64,000 nt of DNA from Candidatus Krumholzibacteriota bacterium (GCA_029262065.1 JAJDAC010000031.1:1-64000); one strand, 5' to 3'; positions 15,723-64,000 are shown, counted from the stretch's first letter. The notes: a model not told the origin generated them from the letters alone. Program-made: numbers and translations.

Positions 15723-16427
15723 TTAGGGGTCCGACGCCAACCATTGGGTCAGCCAGGGGCCCAGGTCGCCCCATTGTCCAAGCACCAACTCGGCTCCCGA
15801 TCGCTCCAGGGCCGATTTGGTATGATAACCCCAAGACACGCCCAGGGTGCGGGCTCCCGCCCTGGAGCCCATTTCCATGTCGAACGTGGTGTCACCGACC
15901 ACGACGATATTGCCGCAGGGCACCCCCACTTCCGCGGCCGCCTGTTGGACCATGGCCGGATGCGGTTTGCTGGGCGCGTCGTCGGCGGTCTGCAACGTGG
16001 CGAACAAGGGAAGCAGGTCGTGGTGTTCCAGCACCTCGCGCAGGCCCCGGCGTCCTTTGCCGGTGGCTATCCCCAGCACGAAGCCTTGAGCGTCGGCGTC
16101 GAGCAGGGCTTCACGCGTGCCTGGATACAGCGATTCGAACTGGCTGTCGGTGGCCCGGAACCGTGAGAATGCGGCTCGGTATCGGTCGACCATGGCCGTG
16201 TGGGTCGCCTGGTCGCCCTCAGGGTGGAGTCTGCGCACCGCCTCCATGAGCGACAGCCCCACGATGCTGCGCACCGCCTGAGGCTCGGGCGACGGCGCGC
16301 CACTGCCGATCCACGCTTCGGCCATGGCCCGGGCGATCAGGGACTGGCTGTCGACCAGTGTGCCGTCACAATCGAAGAGCACCATGCGAGAACGGTCGGA
16401 CTTTGCCGACGAGGACGATTGGTTCAT
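15723..16427 (-). CDS. HAD-superfamily hydrolase (phosphoglycolate phosphatase-like).
   Basis: Motif I LFDCDGTLVDS, motif III K (GIATGKGRRG), motif IV VVGDTTFDMEMG. An alternative start at ATG 16385 (MVLFDCDGTL) is equally plausible. Confidence 0.8.
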   Translation of the reverse strand: MNQSSSSAKSDRSRMVLFDCDGTLVDSQSLIARAMAEAWIGSGAPSPEPQAVRSIVGLSLMEAVRRLHPEGDQATHTAMVDRYRAAFSRFRATDSQFESLYPGTREALLDADAQGFVLGIATGKGRRGLREVLEHHDLLPLFATLQTADDAPSKPHPAMVQQAAAEVGVPCGNIVVVGDTTFDMEMGSRAGARTLGVSWGYHTKSALERSGAELVLGQWGDLGPWLTQWLASDP

Positions 16428-17642: not shown

Positions 17643-17891
17643 ATGGCCAAGAAGGCTGCCAAGAAGAAGGCCAAGAAGAAGACCGCACGACGCAAGAAGG
17701 CTCCCACCATGGAAATGCTGCTCGTAGGTAGCAAGACCAAGGCGGCGTTGAAGGAGGGCGGCGTGAATGTCGCCTCCGACGCGCTCGAGGGCTTGAACGG
17801 TATCGTCTACTGGTACCTGGATCAGGCGACCAAGCGCGCTGCCGCCAACGGGCGCAAGACCGTTCGCGCGCACGATTTCGTGATCATGTAG
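17643..17891 (+). CDS. Bacterial histone-fold (HMf-like) protein with an N-terminal lysine-rich tail.
   Basis: 82 aa. MAKKAAKKKAKKKTARRKKAPT, then MEMLLVGSKTKAALKEGGVNVASDALEGLNGIVYWYLDQATKRAAANGRKTVRAHDFVIM. The core aligns with archaeal HMfB (RVSDDARITLAKILEE...ASEAIKLARHAGRKTIKAEDIELA), sharing VS/ADDA...L...A...A..GRKT(I/V)(K/R)A.D. The track ORF starts upstream at 17550; I prefer ATG 17643 with its SD. Confidence 0.55.
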   Translation: MAKKAAKKKAKKKTARRKKAPTMEMLLVGSKTKAALKEGGVNVASDALEGLNGIVYWYLDQATKRAAANGRKTVRAHDFVIM

Positions 17892-17906
17892 GTCCACTGG
17901 ACCTAC
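17888..17906 (+). terminator. Putative stem-loop immediately 3' of the histone-fold gene (no U-tract).
   Basis: Inverted repeat GTAGGTCCA-c-TGGACCTAC, with 9-nt arms. The stem includes the TAG stop codon. It is followed by GC-rich sequence rather than a T-run. Confidence 0.3.
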
Positions 17907-18103
17907 CGTCATCGGGGTGCGGCCTCTTTCGAGCGGCCACGCCCCGTGACGACTCTTTCCTCCAGAGCCGCTCCGCCCCGATGCCCCTGCCACCACCGAC
18001 ATCAACTTCTTCAGCCTCCGCGCCCACAAAGTGCGCGGGGTGCTATTGTCCTCGGGCGATGGCAGTCGTAGACTCTGCCTGAAGCGAGGGCGCTGTGCTC
18101 TCG

Positions 18104-18628
18104 ATGACCCGACGGCTCGCCCGGGGAGGCGCCGTGACCGAAACGAAACCCGACGGATCCCGCTCAGTTGTACAAGCGTTGCGGGCAGAAAAGGTCAGTC
18201 AGCTGATGACCGCGCCGGCGTTGGCCGTGGGCGAGTCCTCGACCGTGCTCGAAGCCCTCAACGAAATGCGATCGGCGCAGGTGGGGTGCACGCTGGTCAC
18301 CGATGGTGATGACCGGATTCGAGGGATATTCACCGAACGCGATCATCTGGAGAAGATCGCGGGCCGGTCCGATCGCCTGCGGGAACCCATTACCTCGCAC
18401 ATGACCCCCGCTCCGGCGGTGGTCGGTCCTGAAGCCTCGGTGGGCGAACTTCTTTCGGTCATGTCGGCGGGCGGATTTCGCCACATTCCCGTGGTCAGTG
18501 ACGATCGGATCGTGGGCATCGTCAGTGCCCTGGATATCGTGAAGTACATAGCTGACCTGTTCCCCTCCGAGGTATACAACTTGCCTCCCGACTTCGACCA
18601 GGTCATGCCCAGGGTCGAAGGGGCCTGA
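18104..18628 (+). CDS. CBS-domain pair protein.
   Basis: There are two CBS repeats (VSQLMTAPALAVGESSTVLEALNEM...IRGIFTERD and ITSHMTPAPAVVGPEASVGELLSVMSAGGFRHIPVV...IVGIVSALDI). A GTG alternative start lies at 18095. Confidence 0.75.
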   Translation: MTRRLARGGAVTETKPDGSRSVVQALRAEKVSQLMTAPALAVGESSTVLEALNEMRSAQVGCTLVTDGDDRIRGIFTERDHLEKIAGRSDRLREPITSHMTPAPAVVGPEASVGELLSVMSAGGFRHIPVVSDDRIVGIVSALDIVKYIADLFPSEVYNLPPDFDQVMPRVEGA

Positions 18629-18679
18629 TCGAAACCACGGTCGAAGATTCCATCGAACACTTGAGAGGATTTGCGAACG

Positions 18680-20536
18680 ATGGCTGACAACGTTGCCGAA
18701 GAACTTCAGAGCGTAACCATTCGATTCGCCGGTGATTCCGGCGATGGCATGCAGCTCACCGGCAATCGCTTTACCGATACCGCAGCTCTCATTGGCAACG
18801 ACGTTGCCACGTTCCCCGACTTCCCGGCCGAGATCCGGGCCCCAGCCGGGTCGCTACCGGGCGTGAGTGGATTTCAGGTGCAGTTCAGCTCACTGGATAT
18901 CCACACCCCCGGCGATCGTCCCGACGTGTTGGTGGCCATGAACCCCGCGGCGTTGAAGACCAACCTGGCCGATCTGCCCAAGGCGGGCACGATCTTCTGC
19001 AACAAGGATGGCTTTTCGAAGGCCAACCTGAAGCTGGCCGGATACACCAGCAATCCGCTGGAAGATGGCACGCTCGAGGGCTACAAGGTCTACAGCATGC
19101 CCATGAGTTCGCTCACCCAGAAGGCGGTGGAGGAACTGAAGCTCGGGCGCAAGGTGGCCGATCGCTGCAAGAATTTCTTCGCACTAGGCGTAATGTTCTG
19201 GCTGTACGAGCGCCCGCTCGAGCCCACGATCGAGTGGATCGATTCCAAGTTCGGCAAGAAGCCGGAAATCGCCGACGCCAATCGCCGCGCCCTTCGCGCG
19301 GGACACAACTACGCCAATACGCTGGAGCTCCTGCCTCATACGTATCGGATCGAGAAGGCGCAGCTGGACCCCGGCACCTATCGGAGCATCGCGGGTAACG
19401 AGGCCCTTTCGCTGGGTCTGGTCGCCGCGGCCAGGGTCTCGGGTCAGAATCTCTTCTACGGCAGCTATCCCATCACGCCGGCCAGTGACATCCTGCACGA
19501 ACTGTCGCGGCACAAGAATTTCGGTGTGAAGACCTTCCAGGCCGAGGACGAGATCGCGGCCATCGGCGCGGCGATTGGCGCTTCCTTTGGTGGCGCCATT
19601 GCCGTAACCGGGACCAGTGGGCCGGGTATCTGCCTGAAAAGCGAAGCCATGGGGTTGGCGGTCATGGCCGAGCTCCCCCTGGTGATCGTGAACATCCAAC
19701 GCGGTGGACCCAGTACGGGGTTGCCCACCAAGACCGAACAGGCCGACTATCTTCAGGTCATGTACGGGCGCAACGGCGAAAGTCCCATGCCCGTACTGGC
19801 TCCTTCGACCCCCGCGGACTGTTTCTGGATTGCCTTCGAGGCGGTGCGCATCGCGGTGAAATACATGACCCCGGTCATCGTGCTTTCCGACGGGTACCTG
19901 GCCAACGGAGCCGAGCCCTGGAGCATCCCCAGCGCCAGCGACCTACCGAAGATTCCCGTGAGCTTTGCCGATCCCGCATCGCTGAATGGGGATGAGTTCA
20001 TGCCCTATGGCCGCGACAAGAAGACGCTGGCGCGCCCGTGGGCGATTCCCGGAACCGCCGGACTCGAGCATCGGGTTGGCGGGTTGGAGAAGGCCGACGG
20101 CACCGGAAACGTGAGCTACGACCCCCAGAACCATCACCACATGGTCATGACCCGGGCCGAGAAGGTTGCGCGCGTGGCCCAGGACATCGAGCCTCTTCAG
20201 GTCCGTGGACCCGAGCAGGGAGACCTGTTGATGCTTGGTTGGGGCGGAACCTACGGCGCCATCCGTACGGCGGCCGACGCGTTGCGCAACCAGGGCTTGT
20301 CGGTGGCGCATGCGCATCTGCGTCATCTGAACCCGTTTCCGACCAATCTTGGGGACGTGTTGAAGAGCTATGACCGCGTGCTGATTCCCGAGCTGAACAA
20401 CGGGCAACTCAGCCTTCTCATTCGCGCCACGTTCCTGATCGATGCCATCGGCATGAACAAGGTCGCGGGACAGCCCTTCCGCGTGTCGGAGTTGGTTGAG
20501 AAGGCCCGAGAAGTCCTGAATCTGAAGACCGCCTGA
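18680..20536 (+). CDS. korA: 2-oxoacid:ferredoxin oxidoreductase alpha subunit (two-subunit KorAB type; likely 2-oxoglutarate).
   Basis: 619 aa from ATG 18680, with GAGAGGA 9 nt upstream. N-terminus SVTIRFAGDSGDGMQLTGNRFTDT plus gamma/alpha domains (GSYPITPASDILHEL, GPGICLKSEAMGLAVMAELPLVIVNIQRGGPSTGLPTKTEQAD). Confidence 0.9.
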   Translation: MADNVAEELQSVTIRFAGDSGDGMQLTGNRFTDTAALIGNDVATFPDFPAEIRAPAGSLPGVSGFQVQFSSLDIHTPGDRPDVLVAMNPAALKTNLADLPKAGTIFCNKDGFSKANLKLAGYTSNPLEDGTLEGYKVYSMPMSSLTQKAVEELKLGRKVADRCKNFFALGVMFWLYERPLEPTIEWIDSKFGKKPEIADANRRALRAGHNYANTLELLPHTYRIEKAQLDPGTYRSIAGNEALSLGLVAAARVSGQNLFYGSYPITPASDILHELSRHKNFGVKTFQAEDEIAAIGAAIGASFGGAIAVTGTSGPGICLKSEAMGLAVMAELPLVIVNIQRGGPSTGLPTKTEQADYLQVMYGRNGESPMPVLAPSTPADCFWIAFEAVRIAVKYMTPVIVLSDGYLANGAEPWSIPSASDLPKIPVSFADPASLNGDEFMPYGRDKKTLARPWAIPGTAGLEHRVGGLEKADGTGNVSYDPQNHHHMVMTRAEKVARVAQDIEPLQVRGPEQGDLLMLGWGGTYGAIRTAADALRNQGLSVAHAHLRHLNPFPTNLGDVLKSYDRVLIPELNNGQLSLLIRATFLIDAIGMNKVAGQPFRVSELVEKAREVLNLKTA

Positions 20537-20601
20537 CCGGACCACGTAGTACCAGATCTGCGCCTATCCCCGAGCGAGACCAAGAGAGGATTCCACCCGC
20601 C

Positions 20602-21630
20602 ATGAGTACGACAACCCCGGTGGCCCCTGACTCACCTCAACTCACCCGCAAGGACTTCGTGTCCGACCAGGAAGTGCGTTGGTGCCCAGGCTGTGGCGAC
20701 TACGCCATCCTGGCGCAGGTGCAGAAGGTCATGCCGGAATTGGGAATACCGCGCGAGAACGTGGTGTTCATCAGCGGCATCGGTTGTTCAAGCCGATTTC
20801 CCTACTACATGAACACGTACGGCTTCCACTCGATTCACGGCCGGGCCATGACGCTGGCATCGGGTCTGAAGATCTCGCGGCCGGAATTGAGCGTGTGGGT
20901 CATCACCGGTGACGGCGATGCGCTGTCGATCGGCGGTAACCACTTCCTGCACACTCTGCGGCGCAACATGGATCTGAACATCATCATGTTCAACAACCGT
21001 ATCTATGGCCTGACCAAGGGTCAGTATTCGCCGACGTCCGAGACCGGAAAGCGTACCAAGTCCACGCCGCAGGGCTCGATCGATCACCCCATCAACCCCG
21101 TGCGCGCGGCCATCGCCGCCGAGGCCACGTGGGTCGGTCGGTCGGTCGACGTGGATACCAAGCACCTGCCGATGATGGTCAAGGAAATGGCCGCGCACAA
21201 AGGCGTGGGATTCCTCGAGGTCTACCAGAATTGCAACATCTTCAACGACAAGGCTTTCGAGCAGTTCACGGCCAAGTCGGAACGGCCCGATCGCATGCTC
21301 TACATCGAACCGGGCAAGCCGCTGCGGTTTGGCAAGGAGCAGGAAAAAGGGATTCGCGTTGTGAATCATCGTCCCGAGGTGGTAACCCTGGGCGAGAACG
21401 GCGTGACCGAGCAGGATCTGCTGGTGTACGACAACACCGATTCGACCCTGGCCTACATGATCTCGGCCCTGGACCTGCCCGAGTTCCCGGTGCCCGTGGG
21501 CACGTTCCTGAACCTGCAGCGTGAGACCTACGAAGGTGCCTTGACCGCGCAGATTGCCGGCGAGAAAGCCAAGGGTGACGGTGACCTGCAGGGTCTGCTG
21601 AACGGGACCAGTACATGGACCGTTTCCTGA
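20602..21630 (+). CDS. korB: 2-oxoacid:ferredoxin oxidoreductase beta subunit (TPP-binding).
   Basis: WCPGCGDYAIL...ISGIGCSSRFPYYMNTYGFHSIHGRA...VITGDGDALSIGGNHFLHTLRRNMDLNIIMFNNRIYGLTKGQ is the canonical KorB/OorB TPP-subunit pattern. Confidence 0.9.
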   Translation: MSTTTPVAPDSPQLTRKDFVSDQEVRWCPGCGDYAILAQVQKVMPELGIPRENVVFISGIGCSSRFPYYMNTYGFHSIHGRAMTLASGLKISRPELSVWVITGDGDALSIGGNHFLHTLRRNMDLNIIMFNNRIYGLTKGQYSPTSETGKRTKSTPQGSIDHPINPVRAAIAAEATWVGRSVDVDTKHLPMMVKEMAAHKGVGFLEVYQNCNIFNDKAFEQFTAKSERPDRMLYIEPGKPLRFGKEQEKGIRVVNHRPEVVTLGENGVTEQDLLVYDNTDSTLAYMISALDLPEFPVPVGTFLNLQRETYEGALTAQIAGEKAKGDGDLQGLLNGTSTWTVS

Positions 21631-21671
21631 TCGGCACCTAGACGAAAAACGTATCCTAGTGGGGGGTTGCG

Positions 21672-22178
21672 ATGAAGTGTCCGTATTGCAGTCACGAGAA
21701 CATCGCGGGCGTGTCCCTCTGCGAAGATTGCGGCCAGGATCTCACGGCGGTCGGTGACGGTGAGCCTACCGGTCGTCTGCATGGCGCGGTTCTGGACACG
21801 TTGGGCGACGTAGGAATCCTCGACCCCATCGTCATTGCCCCCGCAAAGTCGGTGGCCGACGCGGTTGCCATCATGCGCGAGAAGCGACACGGCTCGGTTA
21901 CCGTTGTCGACGAGGGCAACGTCGTGGGCATCTTCACCGAGCGGGACCTCCTGATCCGGGTGGATCCGCAGGCCGACCTGAAGTCGATCCAGGTGGCGGA
22001 TGTGATGACGCATTCGCCCCGCACCTACCAGTCCAAGACCACGGTCTCCTACGCGCTGAACGGCATGGCCATACGAGGCCACCGGCACCTGCCCATTGTC
22101 AGTGGCAAGGGTGCATTGCGTGGATTCGTGTCGGTGCGCAAACTTCTGGCGCACATCCAGCGTAAGGTTGACCTGTAG
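21672..22178 (+). CDS. CBS-domain pair protein with an N-terminal zinc ribbon.
   Basis: MKCPYCSHENIAGVSLCEDCGQDL is a CPxC...CxxC zinc ribbon. It is followed by two CBS repeats (IVIAPAKSVADAVAIMREKRHGSVTVVD...VVGIFTERD; VMTHSPRTYQSKTTVSYALNGMAIRGHRHLPIV). Confidence 0.7.
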   Translation: MKCPYCSHENIAGVSLCEDCGQDLTAVGDGEPTGRLHGAVLDTLGDVGILDPIVIAPAKSVADAVAIMREKRHGSVTVVDEGNVVGIFTERDLLIRVDPQADLKSIQVADVMTHSPRTYQSKTTVSYALNGMAIRGHRHLPIVSGKGALRGFVSVRKLLAHIQRKVDL

Positions 22179-22188
22179 ACCAGGTTTC

Positions 22189-23652
22189 ATGTCCACCATC
22201 TCCACCGATACCCTGCTCGAGTTCCGGCGCCTGCACGTGGCCGTGGTGGGTGACTTCTATCTGGATGAGTACGTCACCTGCCATCCCATTGGTATCTCAC
22301 CCGAAATGCCCGTGCTGCGCACCACCGAGGGCGCGCGTACATTGGCGCCTGGCTGCGCGGGAAACGTGGCCGCCAATCTGGCGGCGCTGGGAGCCAAGGT
22401 CACGTGTTTCGGTGCGGTAGGGCAGGACGCGCACGGTGACGCGTTTCTCGAATTGCTGCAAGCACACGGGCTGGACGTGTCGGGCATGATCCGACGCGAC
22501 GACTCCCGCACCGGCGTTTTCACTCGGATCGTGTTGGCCGGCGGCGACGGTTCGTCGCAACACCTGGTGCGTATCGACAATGAACCGGCCACCATGACCG
22601 CCGCGCAGCGCAAGTCATTGTCGAGTACGTTGCTTGAGCGACAAGGTGAGTTCGACGCCATCTTCGTTTCCGACTACGACGAAACCGGCGAAGATCGCGG
22701 GATCGCGGGGCCGCAGCTGGCGCATGCGTTGCGCCAGGGTGTAACCATCGATCGTCCACGTCTCGTGGGATCGTCCCGCTTGCGCCCCGAGATGTTCAAC
22801 GGCTTCGATATGTTGTTCGCCAACCGGGAAGAAGCGGCTCGGCTGGGGGCTGGGTCGATGACCGACCTTCGCCAGGAACATGCTCTCGATCTGCTATGCA
22901 CCACCGCGGGCGCCGAAGGCGCCACGGTGACCGACGAAGCGGGCAGTGTGGTGTCACCTTCGCTCACGCGCGATCTGGTCGATCCCTGCGGCGCGGGAGA
23001 CGCTTTTGCTTCGGCATTTTTGTTGTCCTCTTTGTCGGGGCTGGCGAACGTGCCGGCGGCCGCGGTGGCCAATACGGCCGCCGCCATTGCGGTCAGCCGC
23101 CCCGGCACGGTCGTGGTTACACAAGAAGATCTCATGGGTGAGCTTCGTTTTCACGGGGCGGGCGGCGGCAAGCTGGTTTTGCTCGACGCCCTGGTCGAGC
23201 ACCTGGAGTCGCGTCGGGCGCGCAAGAAGATTGTCTTCACCAACGGCTACTTCGATCTCTTCCATTCGGGTCACGTTCATCTGTTGCGCGAGGCCCGGGC
23301 GCTAGGGGACATGCTGGTGGTAGGTATCAACAGCGATCGTTCGGCGCGTGAAAACAAGGGCGAGGGGCGCCCGGTGCTCGACGAAACCGAACGAATCCAG
23401 ATTCTGGCCTCGCTCGAGCAAGTGGATTTCGTGGTGGTGTTCGAGGAACTCACACCCATCAACGTCATCCGGCGCGTTTTGCCTCACGTGCTGGTAAAAG
23501 GTGGTAACTACGCCCCCGAAGATGTGGTCGGGCGCGAAGTCGTGGAGGCCGCGGGCGGCACCGTGCGCGTGATTCCCTACCAGGGAGACGTCAGCACGAC
23601 CAACCTGATTCGCTCGATCAAGAAAGCCTCCGACGGGACTCGCGGGCAGTGA
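22189..23652 (+). CDS. hldE: Bifunctional D-glycero-beta-D-manno-heptose-7-phosphate kinase / heptose-1-phosphate adenylyltransferase.
   Basis: N-terminal ribokinase-like domain (VAVVGDFYLDEYV...NVAANLAALGAKV...DPCGAGDAF). C-terminal cytidylyltransferase domain (IVFTNGYFDLFHSGHVHLLREARALGDMLVVGINSD). The true ATG is 22189; the track ORF start at 22096 overlaps the CBS gene. Confidence 0.85.
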   Translation: MSTISTDTLLEFRRLHVAVVGDFYLDEYVTCHPIGISPEMPVLRTTEGARTLAPGCAGNVAANLAALGAKVTCFGAVGQDAHGDAFLELLQAHGLDVSGMIRRDDSRTGVFTRIVLAGGDGSSQHLVRIDNEPATMTAAQRKSLSSTLLERQGEFDAIFVSDYDETGEDRGIAGPQLAHALRQGVTIDRPRLVGSSRLRPEMFNGFDMLFANREEAARLGAGSMTDLRQEHALDLLCTTAGAEGATVTDEAGSVVSPSLTRDLVDPCGAGDAFASAFLLSSLSGLANVPAAAVANTAAAIAVSRPGTVVVTQEDLMGELRFHGAGGGKLVLLDALVEHLESRRARKKIVFTNGYFDLFHSGHVHLLREARALGDMLVVGINSDRSARENKGEGRPVLDETERIQILASLEQVDFVVVFEELTPINVIRRVLPHVLVKGGNYAPEDVVGREVVEAAGGTVRVIPYQGDVSTTNLIRSIKKASDGTRGQ

Positions 23653-24563
23653 AGTCCCACGACCGCGATCGGGAAACCCATTTCGCAGTAATCGACAAGT
23701 TCATCGACCTGGCCGATCTTCCTTCCGACGAGGCGGCCATGTTGAAGGTCGAATTGCAGCGCTACATGCGCGTGCGGCTGGACCGAGGTCACTGGATCGA
23801 GCCCGAGATCACCCGTTTCCACACGTCCTGGTATCGCGAGTTCTACCGGTTGGTGGGCCAGCGCGATCCCTACATCAAGGCCAAGAATGTCTCCAACGAC
23901 GTGGCGAGGTCCATTCTCGACCGCATCGATGTGGGCACACTCCGCCGCGCCGTGCTGGCGTCGATCGTGGCCAACAACCTGGACTACGGGGTGTACCGCT
24001 TCGACGAGGGTACGTTGCCCATTACGGCCACTGACTTTGCCGATCTCGATGGACTCGAGTTGGGATTCGATCACTACGATGAACTCGAGTCGGGGCTCGA
24101 GCGAGCGTCGTCGTTGCTGTACCTGCCCGACAACAACGGTGAGGTTGAATTCGACCGGCACGTCCTGGAGCGGATTACCGAGCGCTGGCCCGACCTGGAA
24201 GTGACCATCGCCGGCAAGCACGAGCCCATGCTCAACGATGTCACGGTGGATGAATTGCGCGATCTGGGTTTCGAGGGGTTTGGCCGGGTCATGTCCACGG
24301 GCAGCAATTGTTTCGGCCTGCCGCCCGACGAGATCAGCGACGAGATGCACCGCGCGGTGGGCGAGAGCGATTTGATCATCGCCAAGGGTCAGGCGTACCT
24401 GGAATTCTTCACCGAGTACGCCATCGACCGCGTCGTGCATCTGGCCCACGCGAAGATCGACGTGGTCGATCCTCAACTTCCCCTGATCGAAGCCGGCTGC
24501 GATATCATTCTTCACTCGCGGCACTACGCGGCGGACAAGCCGGCCTATCCCGTCTTCGGTTGA
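23649..24563 (+). CDS. DUF89 / ARMT1-like metal-dependent sugar-phosphate phosphatase ('damage-control phosphatase').
   Basis: 304 aa. The GTG start overlaps the hldE stop (GTGA). Globular composition. It contains LIIAKGQAYLEFF, which resembles the DUF89 C-terminal motif. The 371-aa ORF on the opposite strand (23577..24692) is an antisense artefact. Confidence 0.65.
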   Translation: MKSHDRDRETHFAVIDKFIDLADLPSDEAAMLKVELQRYMRVRLDRGHWIEPEITRFHTSWYREFYRLVGQRDPYIKAKNVSNDVARSILDRIDVGTLRRAVLASIVANNLDYGVYRFDEGTLPITATDFADLDGLELGFDHYDELESGLERASSLLYLPDNNGEVEFDRHVLERITERWPDLEVTIAGKHEPMLNDVTVDELRDLGFEGFGRVMSTGSNCFGLPPDEISDEMHRAVGESDLIIAKGQAYLEFFTEYAIDRVVHLAHAKIDVVDPQLPLIEAGCDIILHSRHYAADKPAYPVFG

Positions 24564-24600
24564 TCTGAGCCGGTCACCTTCGAGTTGGAGAGGCGCGCCC

Positions 24601-25788
24601 ATGGCTGAATCCCTGCGTTCGCAATTGCAACGTTCCCTGGCCGAGGGCCGGGGTGTCTTGTTTGCCGAACCCAATCTGGTGTATCGCAACACCTACACCG
24701 GCCGCGGCTTGTTGGGAAAGAACCAGCGATTGGGAGAGGGCGACGCCGACGATCGCGGATACGTGCCGGTGGAATGGTGGATCATGTCGGCGGCCGAAGC
24801 CGACAACCCGGTGCCCCGCGCGGGCGAGGGGATTTCCAAGCTCAGGCTAGCGGCGTCGGTGGCCGGCCTCGATGAGCTTGGGACCGCCGCGGGTGATCTA
24901 CTGTTCGGTTCGGCTCAGACGCGGTGGCCGCTGATCAAGCTCCTGGACATCGGTGGGCCTCGTGTGCGCGGCGACTTCTCCGACCGCGACGAGACGCCTC
25001 CCATTCCGCCGCACGTGCATTCCGGAGCGATCGTGGATGGGAAGGCCCAGGGTCCGGGGAAACTCGAGGCGTACTTCTTTCCTCCGGTGGCGCAGCCGGA
25101 TCTGGCCCAGGAACTCCAGGGGACCATCACGCGGCTGGGTCTGCGGCCGGATGTCACGTTGCAACAGTTCGAGCAGGCCCTGAGCGAGTTCGGGCAGGGG
25201 GACGCGATGTACTCGTTGCTCCAGGAGTATCCCATTCGGCCCTACGACGGCTGGACGATTCCGCCCAAGGTCGTCCATGCGCCAGGTCCGTGGCCCACGC
25301 TCGAGGTGCAGTTGCCGCAGGACGACTTCAACCTGGCTGGTTGGCACCTGGGAAAGCGTATTGCTTCCGAGCAACTCGACGCGGAGCGGGAGTCACTATG
25401 TCTGCGCGGGCTCCACCGGCCGGCCGATTTCGCCGCTGAACTCGTAAATTGGCCCGTGTCGGCCGCGTCGGATTTTCGTGAGCGACACTACCGGGCGGCC
25501 GAGGTGGTGGAGGAATCCCAAGGGGCACGGCGCCTGCGCATCTTCTTCGACCCGTTTCACGGCGAGGCCTGGGAGGTCGAGCCCAGCGCGAGTCTGCAAG
25601 TTGGCGAGCGCGACGAACCGTACTGCGCGTTCGTATGGGATGGTCAGGGTGAACTCGACGCGGGCCGAAGCGTCGATACGCAGATCAACCGGGAGTTTCT
25701 GGTTACCCCGGACACGCCGGTTTCCGTGCTCAACACCGGATCAGGTACGCTGACGGTATTCACCGTCGGCGCGATGTCTGCGAGCTAG
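24601..25788 (+). CDS. Hypothetical protein, possibly a type I phosphomannose-isomerase-like cupin sugar-phosphate isomerase.
   Basis: 395 aa, the same length class as ManA. Weak recall-based similarity to ManA blocks (VEWWIMSAAEADNP ~ ELWMGAHP; WPLIKLLDI...PPHVHSG ~ LPFLFKVL...IQVHPNK; C-terminal LTVFTV). Not verified. Confidence 0.35.
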   Translation: MAESLRSQLQRSLAEGRGVLFAEPNLVYRNTYTGRGLLGKNQRLGEGDADDRGYVPVEWWIMSAAEADNPVPRAGEGISKLRLAASVAGLDELGTAAGDLLFGSAQTRWPLIKLLDIGGPRVRGDFSDRDETPPIPPHVHSGAIVDGKAQGPGKLEAYFFPPVAQPDLAQELQGTITRLGLRPDVTLQQFEQALSEFGQGDAMYSLLQEYPIRPYDGWTIPPKVVHAPGPWPTLEVQLPQDDFNLAGWHLGKRIASEQLDAERESLCLRGLHRPADFAAELVNWPVSAASDFRERHYRAAEVVEESQGARRLRIFFDPFHGEAWEVEPSASLQVGERDEPYCAFVWDGQGELDAGRSVDTQINREFLVTPDTPVSVLNTGSGTLTVFTVGAMSAS

Positions 25789-25789
25789 G

Positions 25790-26377
25790 TCAGGACAGCT
25801 CCCGGAACAACCAGGCGCGTGAGTACTGCCAGTGGCGCTCGACGGTGCGCAGCGACGTATCGATCACCGCCGCGACCTCTTCATTGGTAAGCCCGCCAAA
25901 AAACCGCAGCTCCACCACCTTGGCTTTGGTGGGATCTTCCTGCGCCAAGCGGTCGAGCGCATCCTCCATATCGAGCAGGTCGATGGGTCGATTCCCGTCG
26001 GCCACTTCCAGGCCCGAGGTCAGAGATAGGTGGGGCGCACCGCCGCCGCGCTTGTCGCGGGCGCGGTGGCGCGCATGATCCACGAGCACGCGTCGTATGG
26101 CCTGCGCGGCCACGGCCATGAAATGGGCACGATTCTGCCAATCCACCCGGGTTTGGCCCACGAGTTTCAGGTACGCCTCGTTGACCAGGGCGGTGGCCTG
26201 CAGCGTATGGTCGGCCCGTTCGCCTCCCAACTGGTGTTGGGCCAGGCGCCGCAATTCGTCGTACACCAGGGGAAACAGGGCCTCAACCGCACCTGGGCCA
26301 CGACTCTCTATTTCGCCCAGCAGGCGCGTGACGGCGCCCGCGTTGGACTCGGGCTGGGGGTCTCGATTCGGCGTCAT
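25790..26377 (-). CDS. ECF sigma factor (TIGR02999-like, orphan, no adjacent anti-sigma).
   Basis: VTRLLGEIESRGPGAVEALFPLVYDELRRLAQHQL...ATALVNEAYLKLVG (region 2) and VVELRFFGGLTNEEVAAVIDTSLRTVERHWQYSRAWL (region 4). Confidence 0.8.
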   Translation of the reverse strand: MTPNRDPQPESNAGAVTRLLGEIESRGPGAVEALFPLVYDELRRLAQHQLGGERADHTLQATALVNEAYLKLVGQTRVDWQNRAHFMAVAAQAIRRVLVDHARHRARDKRGGGAPHLSLTSGLEVADGNRPIDLLDMEDALDRLAQEDPTKAKVVELRFFGGLTNEEVAAVIDTSLRTVERHWQYSRAWLFRELS

Positions 26378-26507
26378 GGATCCAGTATACCACGCAAAAT
26401 CAGTCAGTTGGCTAGCTCAGCCTGGAACCGGCCAGGGCGCCGTCTTGAGTCCGGCGACCAAAGAATGAACCCCGGGACCTCGCTCTGCGTCCTGTATCTT
26501 GAGCGAT

Positions 26508-27077
26508 ATGGAAGACGCAGAACTCGTACACCGTTGCCGGGCCGGAGATGAACTGGCCTGGGAGGTCCTGATACGGAGGTATCAGGGCCGGATCTACGCG
26601 CTTGCGTACCACTACGTGCGACACGCCGAGGAAGCCCGGGATTTGACACAGGACATATTCGTGAGGATCTACCGCGGTCTACCGCGCTTCCAGAAGTCCG
26701 AGAGTTTCGTGCCCTGGATGCTGAGGATCGCGCGCACCGCGGCCATCGATCATCTGCGGCGCCGCAAGGCGCGACCCCCCGCCGACGATATTCCGGTGGA
26801 GGACATGTACGGGTTGGCCGACGACGGCCCAGGTCCCGACGACCAACTGGAGGCGCTTTCGTGCAAACAGCTGGTGCATCGGGCGCTGAAATCGCTGACC
26901 GAGGCCCACCGTGAAGTGATCCTGTTGAAGGACATCCAGGGTCTGAGCCTCGAGGAGATATCTGGAATCCTCGACGTGCCGGTGGGCACGGTGAAATCGC
27001 GTTCGAACCGCGCTCGTTTGGAGCTGGCGCGCGAGGTGTTGAGTCTGCAAGACGGTATGGAAGGAGAGATGGCGTGA
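26508..27077 (+). CDS. ECF sigma factor (RpoE-like).
   Basis: AELVHRCRAGDELAWEVLIRRYQGRIYALAYHYVRHAEEARDLTQDIFVRIYRGL...ILLKDIQGLSLEEISGILDVPVGTVKSRSNRAR. First ATG at 26508; the track uses TTG 26499. Confidence 0.85.
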   Translation: MEDAELVHRCRAGDELAWEVLIRRYQGRIYALAYHYVRHAEEARDLTQDIFVRIYRGLPRFQKSESFVPWMLRIARTAAIDHLRRRKARPPADDIPVEDMYGLADDGPGPDDQLEALSCKQLVHRALKSLTEAHREVILLKDIQGLSLEEISGILDVPVGTVKSRSNRARLELAREVLSLQDGMEGEMA

Positions 27078-27982
27078 GCTGCGAACACTTCGAACAGAAC
27101 ATCCACGCGTATCTCGCCCAATCGCTGGGACCAGCCGAGCAGAGCGGGTTGCAGGCGCACCTGAGCGAGTGTGTCCACTGCGTCGCGTTGGTCAGGATTT
27201 TCGCGACGAAGGATGAGCCTTCGGTCGATGCGGATCTTACCACGGCCATCCTGCGTCAGACATCGGGCACGGTGTGCACGAGTGCACGGGATCGCCTACC
27301 CGATCTGGTCGACGGTCGACTCCAAGCCGACGAAGCCGGAATGGTCGAAAACCACGCCCAGGCTTGCGACTCGTGTCGCGCGGTGCTGGTCACGCTCGAG
27401 GAAATGGTTCCGGCGCTGCAGTCCATGGCGCAGATCGAGCCCGATACGGTGTTGGTCGAAGATGTGGTACACGCCACCACGCGGCAGATGGGTAGCGGGT
27501 GGTTGGAGGTCAGGGTCGCATTGGTCGCTTCCGCATGGCGGCGGCTCTTGGCGCGACCGCGGTTCGCCTACGAGGCTGGCTATGGCTTCACGGTCGCGAT
27601 CGTACTGCTCATGGCGTTGCCGGTATCGCCTCTTCGTCACGTGCCGATCGATGGACTGGCCGTGTTGCGCGGAGAGGCCTCGCTCGAGGAGAAGAGCGAC
27701 CTATGGCGCAGGCTGCGCCCGGTACGGGGCCTGGGAGCCCGCGCGTTGCACAAGGGGGGCGATCTGGGGACGGGTGTGTCGACGGAAGTGGCGAGTCGTC
27801 GACTGCAGATGGGACGGGTGTGGCCTCGCATGGGGAACAACGCGAATCGTCTGGGCGCAGCCATGTTGGGGATGGAAGTCGAAACCATACCGGTGGCGCT
27901 GGATGCGCTGGGGTGTGACCTGAGATTGTTGTGGGACGGTTTGCACAAGCGGCTGCCGGCCGAAGGAGATCTGGAATGTTGA
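27074..27982 (+). CDS. Anti-sigma factor (zf-HC2-like), single-pass membrane protein.
   Basis: The GTG start overlaps the sigma stop (GTGA). N-terminal CEHFEQNIHAYLAQSL...HLSECVHC, with a second HAQACDSCRAV motif. TM segment FTVAIVLLMALPVSPL. Confidence 0.6.
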   Translation: MSCEHFEQNIHAYLAQSLGPAEQSGLQAHLSECVHCVALVRIFATKDEPSVDADLTTAILRQTSGTVCTSARDRLPDLVDGRLQADEAGMVENHAQACDSCRAVLVTLEEMVPALQSMAQIEPDTVLVEDVVHATTRQMGSGWLEVRVALVASAWRRLLARPRFAYEAGYGFTVAIVLLMALPVSPLRHVPIDGLAVLRGEASLEEKSDLWRRLRPVRGLGARALHKGGDLGTGVSTEVASRRLQMGRVWPRMGNNANRLGAAMLGMEVETIPVALDALGCDLRLLWDGLHKRLPAEGDLEC

Positions 27983-30886: not shown

Positions 30887-31054
30887 CTGGGGATCTCCGC
30901 CTGACCGAGGTTGCGCGAATCATGGCGCAAACCGCCGTCGGTTGACAACCGCTGGCATGCCATTACCCTGATACGGTCCTACCCGTTGCATATTCCAACC
31001 TTCCATCGTTGCACGCGGCTTCGGGGGCAGGTTGGATGTCCCGCGAAAGACGTC

Positions 31055-32035
31055 ATGGCTTCCGGCCCACGCGCCCGCTCGATTCCCCTGCTCGATCTGC
31101 ATCCGGCCCCCGATGATTTTCTGGGTGAAGTGATCGAGGGCTTGCAAACCACTCCCAAAACGCTTCCATGCAAGTACTTCTACGATCGGGAGGGGTCGCT
31201 TCTGTTCGATCAGATCACCCAACTCGATGAGTACTACCCAACGCGCACCGAAGTGGCGATTCTCACCGAAAACATGGCGGCGATCGCCCGACACATCGGT
31301 CCACGCGCCCGGGTCGTCGAGTACGGTAGCGGCAACGGAAGCAAGACGCATCTCTTGTTGGATCATCTCGATCAACCCACCGCCTACGTCCCGGTCGAGA
31401 TCTCACGCCGTCATCTGCTCGAAAGCGCGCAGCAACTTCAGGCGTCGTTTCCCCGCATCGAAGTACTGCCGGTCTGTGCCGACTTCACGCAGGCTATCAA
31501 GTTGCCCCAGCCGCGGGGCGCCTTCGAACGCACCGTGGTGTTCTTTCCGGGGTCGACCATTGGCAATTTTGCCAAAGGCGAAGCCGTGGACTTGATGCGC
31601 CGGATGGGCGCCGTGGTCGGTGTCGGTGGGGGCCTCTTGATTGGCGTGGATCTACAGAAGGATCGCACTATTCTCGAGCGCGCCTACAACGATGCCTCCG
31701 ACGTTACGGCACGGTTCAATCTGAACCTGCTGCAGCGGATCAATCGCGAGTTGGGGGCGAACTTCGATGCCAAGGGATTTCGCCATGAGGCGATCTACGA
31801 CGACAAGGCTGGGCGTATCGAAATGCACCTGATCAGCAAAACCGATCAAACGGTGACGATCGGGCAGTCTTCGTTCGAATTCGCAAAGCACGAAGTCATC
31901 CACACCGAGTCGTCCCACAAGTATACGCCCGAGGGGTTTGACGAACTCTCGCGTGAAGCCGGTTTTGAACCTACTGTCATGTGGACCGATCCCAACTCGT
32001 TGTTCAGCGTGCGGTACTGTCAACGCGCCCGTTGA
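31055..32035 (+). CDS. egtD: L-histidine N-alpha-methyltransferase-like SAM-dependent methyltransferase (EgtD family).
   Basis: LPCKYFYDREGSLLFDQITQLDEYYPTRTEVAIL, EYGSGNGSKTHLLL and FFPGSTIGNF are hallmark EgtD/Methyltransf_33 blocks. The real ATG is 31055; the track ORF start at 30911 is an upstream extension. Confidence 0.7.
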   Translation: MASGPRARSIPLLDLHPAPDDFLGEVIEGLQTTPKTLPCKYFYDREGSLLFDQITQLDEYYPTRTEVAILTENMAAIARHIGPRARVVEYGSGNGSKTHLLLDHLDQPTAYVPVEISRRHLLESAQQLQASFPRIEVLPVCADFTQAIKLPQPRGAFERTVVFFPGSTIGNFAKGEAVDLMRRMGAVVGVGGGLLIGVDLQKDRTILERAYNDASDVTARFNLNLLQRINRELGANFDAKGFRHEAIYDDKAGRIEMHLISKTDQTVTIGQSSFEFAKHEVIHTESSHKYTPEGFDELSREAGFEPTVMWTDPNSLFSVRYCQRAR

Positions 32036-61184: not shown

Positions 61185-64000
61185 CTGCCGCCGCTTCAGT
61201 TCGTCCCATCTGGGTTTGTCGCCCTGCGATCCCCGTTGCTTTCGTTCCATGAGCTGGAAGAGTGGACGAGAGACCTGCACGGGACCAATTCGCACGCGGA
61301 TCTGGCGAAGTACCGTGCAGATGTGGACCTGGTTCGCCAGCGCCTGCGCGAAGCCCTGCGGCATCCGATGGTGCAGGAGGCTCTGTTTCTCGCATCACCA
61401 TCTCTCCACGAGCGCGCGGCCGTCTGGCTCGAAGACCCCGAGCGTGAGGAGGCGTTGGGAATCGAAGCGGGCCTTGTCCGCTATTTCACACGCATGGCCT
61501 CGCGAAGCACGCCGTTCGGTCTCTTCGCTGGCAATAGCGTGGGCTCGGTCGGGCACGAGACCGTGTTGCGATTGCAGGCGGCCAAAGATGCCGTGCGCCA
61601 TACCCGTCTGGACACCGAATACCTGGATGCCGTCATCGCGCGGCTGGTGGCCCAGCCCGATATTCGTGCCGTGTTGACGTTTCGAACCAATACCAGCTTG
61701 TACGAGGTAGGCGAGACCATCCGATACGCGGAGGCGCGCCTGGTGCAGGGCCGTCGGGCGTACTTCCTGGTCGATGTGGAGTCCCATGCGCATCTGCGCC
61801 GCGCCCTGGTCGTCGCGGACAACGGGGCGACACCCGACGAGCTGGCCCGGGCCATTTCCGACGAAGACGTTCCGATTGAAACTGCCCGTGACTTCGTGGA
61901 CCAGCTGATCGATGCCCAATTGCTGACGGTGGATCTGGGGCCGGTCATTACAGGACGAGGCGCCGTCGAGTACCTGCTGGATCGACTCCAGCGAGTCGCA
62001 GCTGACTGTGAACCGGTGGCCAACGCAGTGCGCGTTCTTTCTGCCGTGCAGGGCAAGTTGGCCGACTTCGACGCGGCGGGGGTGGGGCAACTGGCAACCG
62101 AGTACCGCCAATTGGTGTCGACCGCGCGCAGCTTGGCCGAGGTTTCGGCGTCGAGGTTCGTGCAGGTGGATGTGGCCAAACCCATGGATGCCCTGACCGT
62201 GGCATCCAATCTGGTGGACGAGTTGGCGCGAGGCGTCGATGTTCTTGTCGACCTGTTTGCGTACGGGCGCGACGATCCCTTGGCTGAATTTCGGCGGGCG
62301 TTCGAAGCCCGCTACGGCGAGAGAACCATCCCGTTGGTGGAGGTCCTGGATGAAGAAATGGGAATCGGGTACGGTGCGGCGCAAGGTCCTGGGACCGACC
62401 CCTCGCCGCTCCTGGCGGGGCTGCCGTTTCCCGCGGAACAGGAAGATGAGACCGTAGGTTGGGGCAGTCGAGGCCGATACCTCCTGTGGCGCGTGGCCGA
62501 AACGATCGAGGCGGGCCAGGACGAGTTGGTGCTCGATCCGCGTGAAGTCGCGCGTTTTCGCGATCCCGGTGCGCCGCGTCTGCCCAACGCCTATCACATC
62601 ATGGCCAGTCTGCTGGCCGAGGATCCGAACAACTCCGACGCCCCACGCGCCGTGCTTGATTCGGCGGGCGGTCCGTCGGGCGCGCGCCTGTTGGGCCGTT
62701 TTTGTCACGTGGACGACGAGCTGCAGCTGAGAGTTCGTGAGCACCTGCAGGCCGAGGAGCAGCTCGATCCCGGCGTCCGATTCTTCGAACTTGTTCATCT
62801 ACCCGAAGGTCGCGTTGGAAACATCCTGGCTCGACCGCTGTTGCGAGACCTGGAGTTGGAGTACCTGGGTACGTCGGGGACGAGTGTAGGCAAACGACTT
62901 CGTATTACGGATCTCACGCTGTCCGTGGCGGGCGGACGCGTGGTACTTCGCTCTCGCCGGCTGGGCTGCGAGGTGCGTCCGCGGATAACATCGGCCCACA
63001 ATACCCAATGGCGCAGCTTGGGCATCTATCGGTTCCTCAGTGCGCTGCAAGCCGAAGGACATGTCGAGGGAGTCGCTTGGACGTGGGGTCCGCTCGAGAG
63101 TCAACCGCGACTGCCGCGGGTTCGGATGGGCTCGTTGATCCTGAGCCGCGCCCGCTGGAACGTGCCGGCACCCGAAATGAAGGAGCTGGTCGCGACGGGA
63201 CCGTCGATCGCCGAACGACATGGTTCATTCACGCGCGTCCAGGCGTGGCGCGCGAAGCGAGGGCTGCCCCGGTGGATCGGGTTGGTAGACCAGGACAATG
63301 TGCTGACCGTCGACCTGGACAATCCCCTGTCGGTCGCATCGTTGCTCGACGCGCTGCGCAGCCGCAAAGAAGCGACGTTCCAGGAACTGCATCCGGGAGC
63401 GCGTTCGGACGCGGTGACGGGGCCGGAAGGGTGCTTCGTGAACGAAGTAGTCATACCGATGGTACGACGGGCCAAGTCTGACGTAGTCCCACGCGCCGAA
63501 CCGCCGCATCAATCTGAGCGACGCATCGGCGCGTTCGCGCCGGGTTCGGCGTGGATGTCGGCCAAGATCTACGCCGGTCCGGGGCAGTGCGACGCTTTGC
63601 TTACCGACGTGGTGGAGACGGTTTCGCGGAAAGCGCTGGCCACGGGAGTTGCAAGAAGGTGGTTCTTCCTGCGCTACGCCGATCCCGACTGGCACCTGCG
63701 TGTGCGATGGGAGGGTGAACCGGAGCCCATGGCGGCCGAGTTGTTGCCCGCGTTGCATGCTGCCCTCGCACCATGGCTCGAAGATCGACGCGTCCACCAA
63801 CTTCAGTTGGATACGTACCAACGCGAAACACGCCGCTACGGCGGACCCGAGGCAATCGGTGCGGCGGAGGATATCTTCTACCACGATAGTGTGATGACGA
63901 CGGCATTCCTGGCCTTGGCCAGCGGCGACGATGGGCTCGACGCCCGGTGGCGCTTCGCTCTGGTAGCCATGGACCGGCACCTGGATGATTTCGGTCTGGA
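61185..64000 (+). CDS. Class I lanthipeptide-type (LanB-like) dehydratase, full-length type (N-terminal glutamylation domain plus C-terminal SpaB_C elimination domain). It is 3'-truncated by the window end and its start codon is uncertain.
   Basis: It is not in the ORF track because there is no stop before 64000. The frame is open from 61155 to 64000 (more than 938 codons). Hallmarks seen in my own translation: FVALRSPLLSFHELEEW (N-terminal F.vRtPLLP block), VRYFTRMASRSTPFGLFAGNSVG (compare NisB YLRSTPFGLFSETSIG), FFELVHLPEGRVGNILARP, and near the end RRWFFLRYADPDWHLRVRW...ETRRYGGPEAIGAAEDIFYHDS (compare NisB LFFLRYTDPKPHIRLR...ERYGG). The 467-aa track ORF 61395..62798 on the minus strand is its antisense mirror. 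Confidence 0.8.
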   Translation, partial: MPPLQFVPSGFVALRSPLLSFHELEEWTRDLHGTNSHADLAKYRADVDLVRQRLREALRHPMVQEALFLASPSLHERAAVWLEDPEREEALGIEAGLVRYFTRMASRSTPFGLFAGNSVGSVGHETVLRLQAAKDAVRHTRLDTEYLDAVIARLVAQPDIRAVLTFRTNTSLYEVGETIRYAEARLVQGRRAYFLVDVESHAHLRRALVVADNGATPDELARAISDEDVPIETARDFVDQLIDAQLLTVDLGPVITGRGAVEYLLDRLQRVAADCEPVANAVRVLSAVQGKLADFDAAGVGQLATEYRQLVSTARSLAEVSASRFVQVDVAKPMDALTVASNLVDELARGVDVLVDLFAYGRDDPLAEFRRAFEARYGERTIPLVEVLDEEMGIGYGAAQGPGTDPSPLLAGLPFPAEQEDETVGWGSRGRYLLWRVAETIEAGQDELVLDPREVARFRDPGAPRLPNAYHIMASLLAEDPNNSDAPRAVLDSAGGPSGARLLGRFCHVDDELQLRVREHLQAEEQLDPGVRFFELVHLPEGRVGNILARPLLRDLELEYLGTSGTSVGKRLRITDLTLSVAGGRVVLRSRRLGCEVRPRITSAHNTQWRSLGIYRFLSALQAEGHVEGVAWTWGPLESQPRLPRVRMGSLILSRARWNVPAPEMKELVATGPSIAERHGSFTRVQAWRAKRGLPRWIGLVDQDNVLTVDLDNPLSVASLLDALRSRKEATFQELHPGARSDAVTGPEGCFVNEVVIPMVRRAKSDVVPRAEPPHQSERRIGAFAPGSAWMSAKIYAGPGQCDALLTDVVETVSRKALATGVARRWFFLRYADPDWHLRVRWEGEPEPMAAELLPALHAALAPWLEDRRVHQLQLDTYQRETRRYGGPEAIGAAEDIFYHDSVMTTAFLALASGDDGLDARWRFALVAMDRHLDDFGL

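Follow-up and report, generated by a model that had tools for sequence, protein, structure and literature searches.

A candidate ADP-heptose module in which a cupin and a DUF89 phosphatase would take the places of GmhA and GmhB

Introduction

Could three adjacent genes of a Candidatus Krumholzibacteriota bacterium encode a route to ADP-heptose that uses neither GmhA nor GmhB? The genes lie in a stretch of 64,000 nucleotides (GCA_029262065.1, JAJDAC010000031.1:1-64000), called the window below. They encode an HldE-like protein, with a PfkB-type kinase domain followed by a cytidylyltransferase-like nucleotidyltransferase (NT) domain, a DUF89/ARMT1-type phosphatase and a 395-aa bicupin. A first-pass annotation, made from the sequence alone, had proposed that they are a non-orthologous module for ADP-heptose. 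Lipopolysaccharide (LPS) cores as well as S-layer and protein glycans are built with ADP-heptose and its relatives, which are also potent innate-immune agonists sensed by ALPK1. To date, the presence of GmhA, HldE and GmhB homologues has been the basis for naming producers of ADP-heptose (PMC11461863). Our analysis suggests, with a probability of roughly two in three, that the trio is an ADP-heptose-type pathway in which the cupin replaces GmhA and the DUF89 protein replaces GmhB.

Results

The three genes form one operon on the plus strand (Table 1). The ATG start of the HldE-like gene lies 10 nt past the stop of a CBS-domain gene, its TGA stop (23650-23652) shares the letters GTGA (23649-23652) with the GTG start of the DUF89 gene (23649), and the cupin gene starts 37 nt 3' of the DUF89 gene. 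Reading the sequence confirmed the three open reading frames (ORFs) and the overlap as first annotated, and the DUF89 gene is translationally coupled to the HldE-like gene through this overlap. A scan of positions 17800-26600 for promoters and terminators gave no signal over the shuffled expectation. The observation that neither GmhA nor GmhB is encoded next to the HldE-like gene extends to the whole window, in which tblastn and phmmer --max found none. The only HAD hydrolase of the window was considered as a concealed GmhB and rejected, as it is phosphoglycolate-phosphatase-like and matches GmhB with E=0.069.

The cupin has the fold and the metal site of phosphomannose isomerases

The 395-aa protein belongs to a family that sequence models do not recognize. 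It has no match in Pfam or NCBIfam with E up to 0.1, and for its 220 relatives among 5.8 billion proteins, which span bacteria, archaea and eukaryotes, "hypothetical" and "uncharacterized" are the only names that the sources give. An exhaustive search of 1.84 billion cluster representatives with the family profile gave only 726 matches, 98 with E under 1e-30, which makes this a compact and rare family. When 53 members are aligned, 48 columns are invariant, and the AlphaFold2 model built on this alignment has a pLDDT of 95.9 and a pTM of 0.93. The only structural relatives found by the fold search are the type-I phosphomannose isomerases (PMIs) 1pmi, 2wfp, 1qwr and 1zx5, whose three-domain bicupin fold the model shares. 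The weak PMI-like features that the first-pass annotation had noticed are real: the putative mannose-phosphate isomerase 1zx5 is matched with E=0.08 by phmmer and with E=1.1e-4 by the family profile. The comparison of the family with Escherichia coli ManA (hhalign; hmmsearch --max) gave a short match only, which is not significant, so the homology to PMIs rests on the fold search and the motif register. The fold match is decisive for the isomerase fold that had been suspected here, and the metal ligands are in register with it.

The register between the cupin and ManA (Table 1) rests on motifs compared side by side and on the overall fold match rather than on a printed structural alignment. 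H226, E235 and D241 of the cupin keep the +9 and +15 spacing of H255, E264 and D270 in ManA, and H138, H140, E156 and H226 are invariant in the 53 sequences. The Zn ligands of PMIs are Gln, His, Glu and His (PMC3765361; Q111, H113, E138 and H285 in the Candida albicans enzyme, CaPMI), and the cupin carries His, His, Glu and His, that is, with His for Gln as the first ligand. Two arginines, R29 and R178, are invariant in the same alignment and R52 nearly so. L245 and G251 align with R274 and K280 of ManA, which, like R304 of CaPMI, are presumed to bind the 6-phosphate. We predict from these features that the cupin is a metal-dependent aldose-ketose isomerase like PMI, acting on another substrate. 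The predicted reaction is the interconversion of sedoheptulose-7-P and D-glycero-D-manno-heptose-7-P. No module protein matches the SIS domain or TIGR00441 that define GmhA, and the cupin could only be a functional analogue of GmhA.

A distant sister family of full-length proteins (100-140 bits against the cupin profile, 390-425 aa; P0272, P0275, P0287, P0298 and P0307) has members in Nitrososphaeria/Aigarchaeota, in Planctomycetota and in an unclassified bacterium. It has no Pfam match, and every named member is "hypothetical".

The DUF89 protein belongs to a clade that accompanies the module

The second gene encodes a full-length DUF89 phosphatase. The ARMT1-like domain PF01937 is matched with E=2.4e-33 and 116.1 bits against a cut-off of 25, over profile positions 9-300 of 311, and the protein aligns to the DUF89 protein 2g8l of Pyrococcus horikoshii (E=1.8e-28) with the motifs DNxGE..FD, ND and AKGQ in register, which read DNNGEVEFD, LNDVT and AKGQ in the window. 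The score against the NCBIfam equivalog for damage-control phosphatases, NF040824, is 161.9 bits, under its cut-off of 440. Its closest homologues, at 190-330 bits, group in a tight clade, and the full-length proteins that come next score 81 bits at most. Clade members on long contigs repeatedly share the contig with cupin and kinase matches, and some are fused to an NT domain. No homologue of GmhB, the HAD-IIIA phosphatase of the canonical pathway, was found in any of the loci. We predict from sequence and context that the DUF89 protein is a heptose-1,7-bisphosphate 7-phosphatase, an analogue of GmhB.

The DUF89 proteins are generally described as damage-control phosphatases, and their in-vivo substrates are called hard to establish (PMC9062747). 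A merely housekeeping role, which the first-pass annotation had kept as its fallback, is made unlikely by the tight clade travelling with the module and by proteins in which DUF89, NT and cupin are joined in a single polypeptide.

The kinase and nucleotidyltransferase are HldE-like but diverged

The first gene has the two-domain architecture of HldE, with PF00294 (PfkB) at aa 53-308 (E=1.3e-30) and PF01467 (CTP_transf_like) at aa 351-441 (E=1.3e-15). Its top NCBIfam models are HldE, rfaE_dom_I and rfaE_dom_II, and it falls under the equivalog cut-offs of all three: 291.5 vs 521 (NF008454), 168.4 vs 345 (TIGR02198) and 181.3 vs 181.5 (TIGR02199). The NT domain is thus 0.2 bits short of the rfaE_dom_II cut-off, and the kinase domain is far short of its own. 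The best model for the kinase domain is still rfaE_dom_I (E=2.1e-49), the runner-up kinase family having 2.3e-20. The catalytic motifs are intact: GAGD (CGAGDAF) and G-N-V-A can be read in the kinase, and FHSGHV (HxGH) and VSTTNLIRSI (STT) in the NT. Promiscuous heptose NTs of the STTR5 type carry the motif (F/L)xxGRSTT (PMC11573728); the NT here reads YQGDVSTT, with Val at the position of the arginine.

The PfkB domain is predicted to be an anomeric (C1) kinase for heptose-7-P and the NT domain a heptose-1-P adenylyltransferase. HldE-like orthologues accompany the module in at least 16 loci (tblastn), the nearest to those of the window being in metagenome-assembled genomes (MAGs) of Acidobacteria, with 70% identity in the NT domain.

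The trio is conserved and repeatedly fused

The three genes are a conserved, mobile module. We scanned one genome per GTDB species, which gave 28 cupin loci, and compared the window proteins with them by tblastn. The kinase-NT gene, the DUF89 gene or both adjoin the cupin in 18 of the 28, in at least five gene orders. The hosts are DPANN archaea (Woesearchaeota, Aenigmatarchaeota and other small archaea, some labelled "Methanosarcinales") and, among bacteria, Patescibacteria (Paceibacterota), Acidobacteriota, Planctomycetota and Acidimicrobiia. Two bacterial loci, L039 and L040, have the complete trio with gene ends that overlap, and there the flanks are unrelated housekeeping genes. The arrangement is not due to chance, since the trio recurs in distant phyla with wholly different flanking genes.

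Fusions, which arose in independent lineages, join all four activities (Table 1). The scan of viral contigs found no relatives. An 845-aa cupin-PfkB fusion without an NT domain was seen on a 39-kb metagenome contig (L041) that also has ankyrin-repeat, leishmanolysin and purple-acid-phosphatase genes and may come from a protist or a giant virus. The cupin of a Verrucomicrobiaceae MAG (L029) matches in five gapped pieces only; a pseudogene, a divergent copy or mis-assembly could account for this.

A second NT paralogue related to HldE domain II (NT2, with the motif VTTNGSFD) is present in L002-L015, L018, L024, L026, L033 and L043. It is free-standing, fused to the cupin or placed between DUF89 and cupin. 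The kinase-fused NT1 of some loci no longer has HxGH (NEGK in L010, HAGI in L011) or STT (LSSD), and NT2 retains both.

The neighbouring genes point to heptose

The glycosyltransferase family 9 (GT9, Pfam Glyco_transf_9) is the commonest Pfam family near the archaeal modules, with 9 of the 103 neighbour proteins in 11 loci, and GT2, GT1, methyltransferases, NAD-epimerases and STT3 oligosaccharyltransferases rank below it. GT9 genes are found in 13 module loci, namely 11 GTDB loci (L002, L003, L004, L005, L006, L010, L011, L015, L018, L024 and L026) and L033 by profile matches and L043 by Pfam. Both NT paralogues score best against rfaE_dom_II, and the kinases against the heptose-7-P kinase model (270 bits for an archaeal orthologue).

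The Patescibacteria give a further indication. In three of their loci (L021, L024 and L026) a TAL_FSA transaldolase gene lies by the cupin gene, and transaldolase is a source of sedoheptulose-7-P. All three also have a Cof-type HAD phosphatase and lack DUF89, and two have PfkB, NT and GT9 as well. The phosphatase slot is filled by differing families while the cupin stays.

Neither a GmhB nor a bona fide GmhA was found in the module loci. For GmhB, the phmmer --max search covered the flanks of the cupin, up to 10 kb, and gave nothing in any locus. The lone SIS protein, in L009, was rejected as GmhA: it scores 51 bits vs a cut-off of 209, adjoins a transaldolase and is probably pentose-phosphate housekeeping. 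The ranking of HldE homologues shows where the canonical enzyme comes in. Next after P0427 (328 bits) come a DUF89-(degenerate NT)-cupin fusion and a free NT, and two GT9 genes lie to the two sides. A canonical GmhA, with 48% identity to the E. coli protein, overlaps P0438 (276 bits), which ranks first after the drop in scores and has neither DUF89 nor cupin nearby.

Genes for B12-binding radical-SAM (S-adenosylmethionine) enzymes and several SAM methyltransferases recur by the module and its GT9 genes (Table 1); they may serve the C- or O-methylation of a heptose glycan.

Other genes of the window and coordinates

The upstream CBS-domain protein, which the first-pass annotation had offered as a possible regulator, was rejected as a part of the module because tblastn found a counterpart in none of the other loci. 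Two CBS-pair proteins, 29% identical to each other and the second with a zinc ribbon at its N-terminus, flank the 2-oxoacid:ferredoxin oxidoreductase genes korAB; their connection may be to korAB and not to the heptose module. Downstream, two PF07638-type extracytoplasmic function (ECF) sigma genes are divergent; a zf-HC2 anti-sigma factor and a LiaF-like membrane protein come after the second. The window also encodes a 748-aa membrane protein with a weak partial match to TLC ATP/ADP transporters only, an EgtD-like histidine-specific SAM methyltransferase that suggests ergothioneine-type biosynthesis, and, running past the window end, a LanB-type lanthipeptide dehydratase that may mark the edge of a cluster for a ribosomally synthesized and post-translationally modified peptide.

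Table 1. Features of the window, related loci and proteins, and motif register between the cupin and E. coli ManA
Feature	Position or members	Strand	Basis or counterpart
HAD hydrolase	15723-16427	-	phosphoglycolate-phosphatase-like
CBS-pair protein	18095-18628		flanks korAB
korA and korB	18671-21630	+	5' of the CBS gene
Zn-ribbon and CBS-pair protein	21672-22178	+	Pfam
HldE-like PfkB kinase/cytidylyltransferase-like protein, 487 aa	22189-23652	+	Pfam, NCBIfam
PfkB-type kinase domain, N-terminal, aa 1-330	22189-23178	+	PF00294
NT domain, C-terminal, aa 331-487	23179-23652	+	PF01467
DUF89/ARMT1-type phosphatase, 304 aa	23649-24563	+	PF01937
Ribosome-binding site GGAGAGG, 7 nt 5' of cupin ATG	24587-24593	+	sequence reading
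395-aa bicupin, PMI type-I fold	24601-25788	+	fold match; without Pfam/NCBIfam match
ECF sigma gene, convergent, closes the unit	25790-26377	-	PF07638 type
Second ECF sigma gene	26499-27077	+	PF07638 type
Gene 3' of the second ECF sigma gene	27074-27982	+
Membrane protein, 748 aa	28640-30886	-	TLC transporters, weak partial match
EgtD-like methyltransferase	30911-32035	+	Methyltransf_33, E=1.6e-112
LanB-type dehydratase	61236-64000	+	Lant_dehydr_N, E=1.9e-142; Lant_dehydr_C
Cupin motif WPLIK(113)LLD			ManA LPFLFK(86)VL
Cupin motif PH(138)VH(140)			ManA IQ(97)VH(99)P
Cupin motif GK(154)LE(156)			ManA HK(132)PE(134)
Cupin motif H(226)APGPWPTLE(235)VQLPQD(241)D			ManA H(255)AYLQGVALE(264)VMANSD(270)N
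NT-cupin fusion	P0011, P0055
Cupin-NT fusion	P0016
DUF89-cupin fusion	P0033, P0203
DUF89-NT-cupin fusion, single ORF, 855-920 aa	L002, L008, L010, L015, P0202
PfkB-NT-cupin fusion, ~900 aa	L006, L007, P0201
Cupin-PfkB fusion	P0207, P0239
Cupin-PfkB fusion without NT, 845 aa	L041:3286-5823
DUF89-NT fusion	P0158, P0160, P0172, P0182
NT2 examples	L002:9524-9949, L003:9578-9970, L011:13676-14068
Radical-SAM neighbours	L024:15395-16921, L026:14342-15874, L033:15889-17301, L043:3654-5189
Stand-alone cupin loci	L014:4364-8185, L016:633-3438, L020:82-5195, L032:6753-13815
Sponge cupin gene (Halichondria panicea chromosome)	L035:10001-13068
Verrucomicrobiaceae cupin in five pieces	L029:10001-11190

Discussion

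Proposed pathway

We propose a four-step scheme for the module. The cupin, with a metal on H138, H140, E156 and H226, would convert sedoheptulose-7-P to D-glycero-D-manno-heptose-7-P, the usual step of GmhA and the seven-carbon homologue of the reaction between fructose-6-P and mannose-6-P. The PfkB domain would phosphorylate C1 to give heptose-1,7-bisphosphate, the DUF89 protein would take off the 7-phosphate to give heptose-1-P, usually the step of the HAD-fold GmhB, and the NT domain would form the nucleoside diphosphate (NDP)-heptose. The cupin is placed ahead of the anomeric kinase because an aldose-ketose isomerase requires a free C1/C2 carbonyl. The substrates, the order of the steps, the product and the nucleotide specificity are our reading of sequences.

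The proposal of a non-orthologous module is supported by the PMI fold with its metal ligands in register, by the conservation of the trio across bacterial and archaeal phyla with many independent fusions, by the GT9 enrichment and the transaldolase beside the cupin in candidate-phyla bacteria, and by the lack of a bona fide GmhA or GmhB in module loci together with the GmhA swap at P0438. An NDP-heptose product is suggested by genomic context, i.e. GT9, transaldolase, fusions and the GmhA swap.

Several observations weigh against this pathway. The Leu and Gly of the cupin at the positions of the presumed phosphate binders of ManA suggest that its phosphate recognition is different or absent. 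The kinase scores 168 against the HldE domain-I cut-off of 345, and its substrate may differ. The module has no GT9 or other glycan gene near it in the window, nor in the loci of Acidobacteria and Planctomycetota, and NT2 in the archaeal and Patescibacteria modules is superfluous to a four-step scheme. Canonical gmhA and gmhB may exist elsewhere in the genome, the search for them in this organism having covered the window. Finally, the cupin also occurs outside the module, where its roles seem to differ and to be catabolic; its substrates might be unphosphorylated sugars.

The cupin outside the module

Limnochordia, Symbiobacterium and Carboxydochorda encode the cupin without kinase-NT or DUF89. 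Their four loci all have FGGY sugar kinases, two have a DeoC-type aldolase, and the setting is a LacI-regulated sugar-utilisation cluster, which suggests a separate catabolic use of the isomerase. Eukaryotic members (P0076, P0080, P0090 and P0105) come from sponges, an amoeba (Pelomyxa, L042) and protist transcriptomes. The gene of the sponge Halichondria panicea is a genuine animal gene, because it is interrupted by introns and its neighbours are ephrin-receptor, kelch and kinesin genes. No informative neighbours or partners were seen at the sponge locus or at the Pelomyxa locus. The cupin in sponges and amoebae hints at a heptose-type metabolism in eukaryotes, which are reported to be without the canonical phosphatase.

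Alternative explanations

The same proteins could work in another order or on another sugar. The DUF89 protein might first dephosphorylate sedoheptulose-7-P, or another ketose phosphate, after which the cupin would isomerize the free ketose to a free manno-aldose, the PfkB domain would act as an anomeric kinase on the free sugar and the NT would activate the sugar-1-P. The L245/G251 pair would fit an unphosphorylated substrate if the presumed role of R274 and K280 in ManA holds, as would the "isomerase then kinase" logic of the FGGY kinases in the four Limnochordia/Symbiobacterium loci and a kinase domain that is far under the heptose-7-P kinase cut-off. We consider this order unlikely, since R29, R178 and the near-invariant R52 could bind phosphate, the heptose-7-P kinase model is by far the best for the kinase (2e-49 vs 2e-20, and 270 bits for the archaeal orthologue), hydrolysis followed by re-phosphorylation costs ATP, and the PMI-fold enzymes known so far use phosphosugars. 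A hexose version of the pathway seems a little less likely again. Here the cupin would be a true PMI, converting fructose-6-P to mannose-6-P, the kinase would give mannose-1,6-bisphosphate, the DUF89 protein beta-mannose-1-P and the NT ADP- or NDP-mannose, and phosphomannomutase would be bypassed. PMIs are indeed the sole structural relatives of the cupin, the TAL_FSA family found in Patescibacteria also covers fructose-6-P aldolases, the kinase and NT score under the heptose equivalog cut-offs, and an NTP_transferase of the mannose-1-P guanylyltransferase type adjoins the module in L039 and L033. But the top neighbours are GT9 heptosyltransferases, the kinase and NT score best against heptose-specific models, no Pfam PMI model recognizes the cupin, and GmhA, not ManA, takes the cupin's place in the nearest non-module locus. 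The changes at the presumed phosphate positions of PMI are also what a longer substrate would predict.

It could also be that the genes are neighbours without a common pathway, i.e. that an ordinary hldE works with canonical gmhA and gmhB encoded elsewhere, that DUF89 clears stray HldE products and that the role of the cupin is unrelated. We give this the lowest probability of all the readings, although damage control is the role usually given to DUF89 proteins (PMC9062747; 2026 preprint), the search for gmhA and gmhB was limited to the window and the flanks, and the cupin has module-independent contexts. Mere bystanders would hardly be joined in single polypeptides (DUF89-NT-cupin, kinase-NT-cupin, DUF89-cupin and cupin-kinase) in independent lineages, nor would the trio be kept while the flanks change or a dedicated DUF89 clade co-travel with it. 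The other phosphatase family in the same slot in Patescibacteria, and GmhA being present exactly where cupin and DUF89 vanish, also argue against this reading.

Implications

We tentatively extend this proposal, at somewhat less than even odds, to a complete second heptose route with two of its four steps of independent evolutionary origin. DPANN archaea, many Patescibacteria and some Acidobacteriota and Planctomycetota would depend on this route alone, the DUF89 clade would have its first committed biosynthetic substrate, and producers would be undercounted in surveys. If the proposal is true, heptose nucleotides are made by enzymes hidden from homology surveys, in ultra-small archaea and in bacteria without LPS among others, and the producers of the ALPK1 agonist ADP-heptose are more numerous than such surveys tell. 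DUF89 phosphatases would gain a concrete, testable in-vivo substrate and a real biosynthetic job, and a cupin family without a Pfam or NCBIfam model, present in all three domains of life, would gain a function. The module would also be a clean case of double non-orthologous displacement in one short pathway.

We found no literature, in full-text searches, linking DUF89/ARMT1 or a cupin to heptose synthesis; the founding DUF89 paper (Huang et al. 2016) may mention clustering of DUF89 with hldE. As summarized in PMC11573728 and PMC11461863, Tang et al. (2024) located producers as the intersection of homologue sets for the canonical enzymes. Going by these summaries, their survey would likely miss this module because the producers were sought via canonical-enzyme homologues.

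Comparison with known systems

The module resembles the canonical GmhA/HldE/GmhB pathway in the four activities predicted for it (isomerase, anomeric kinase, phosphatase and nucleotidyltransferase), in its homologous kinase and NT, fused as in HldE, and in the associated GT9 heptosyltransferases. It differs in having a PMI-fold bicupin instead of the SIS-fold GmhA, a DUF89 phosphatase instead of the HAD-IIIA GmhB, and a kinase and NT under the HldE equivalog cut-offs; its hosts include wall-less or LPS-less lineages (DPANN archaea and Patescibacteria).

The tridomain isomerase/kinase/NT heptose enzymes of Tang et al., as far as the two summaries describe them, likewise join an isomerase to kinase and NT in one polypeptide, which is comparable to the PfkB-NT-cupin proteins of ~900 aa. 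The isomerase domain of the module fusions is a cupin, however, not SIS, and fusions with the phosphatase (DUF89-NT-cupin) are not described in those summaries.

The cupin shares the fold and the metal site with the type-I PMIs of C. albicans (1pmi), Salmonella typhimurium (2wfp), Bacillus subtilis (1qwr) and Archaeoglobus fulgidus (1zx5), but it is just 14-20% identical to them and outside the PMI sequence families. Its first metal ligand is His and not Gln, a 20-residue insertion precedes its HxH motif, Leu and Gly stand where PMIs have the Arg and Lys presumed to bind phosphate, and its genomic partners are heptose rather than mannose enzymes.

The phosphatase has the domain and the conserved DNxGE, ND and KGQ motifs of DUF89 subfamily I (PH1575 of P. 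horikoshii, 2g8l, and 2ffj of A. fulgidus), but it forms a separate clade under the NF040824 cut-off. Its tie to a kinase of the same pathway, physical or genetic, is like that of the PanK-DUF89 fusions (PanK4), and its predicted role, unlike that of subfamily I, would be a committed biosynthetic step and not clean-up.

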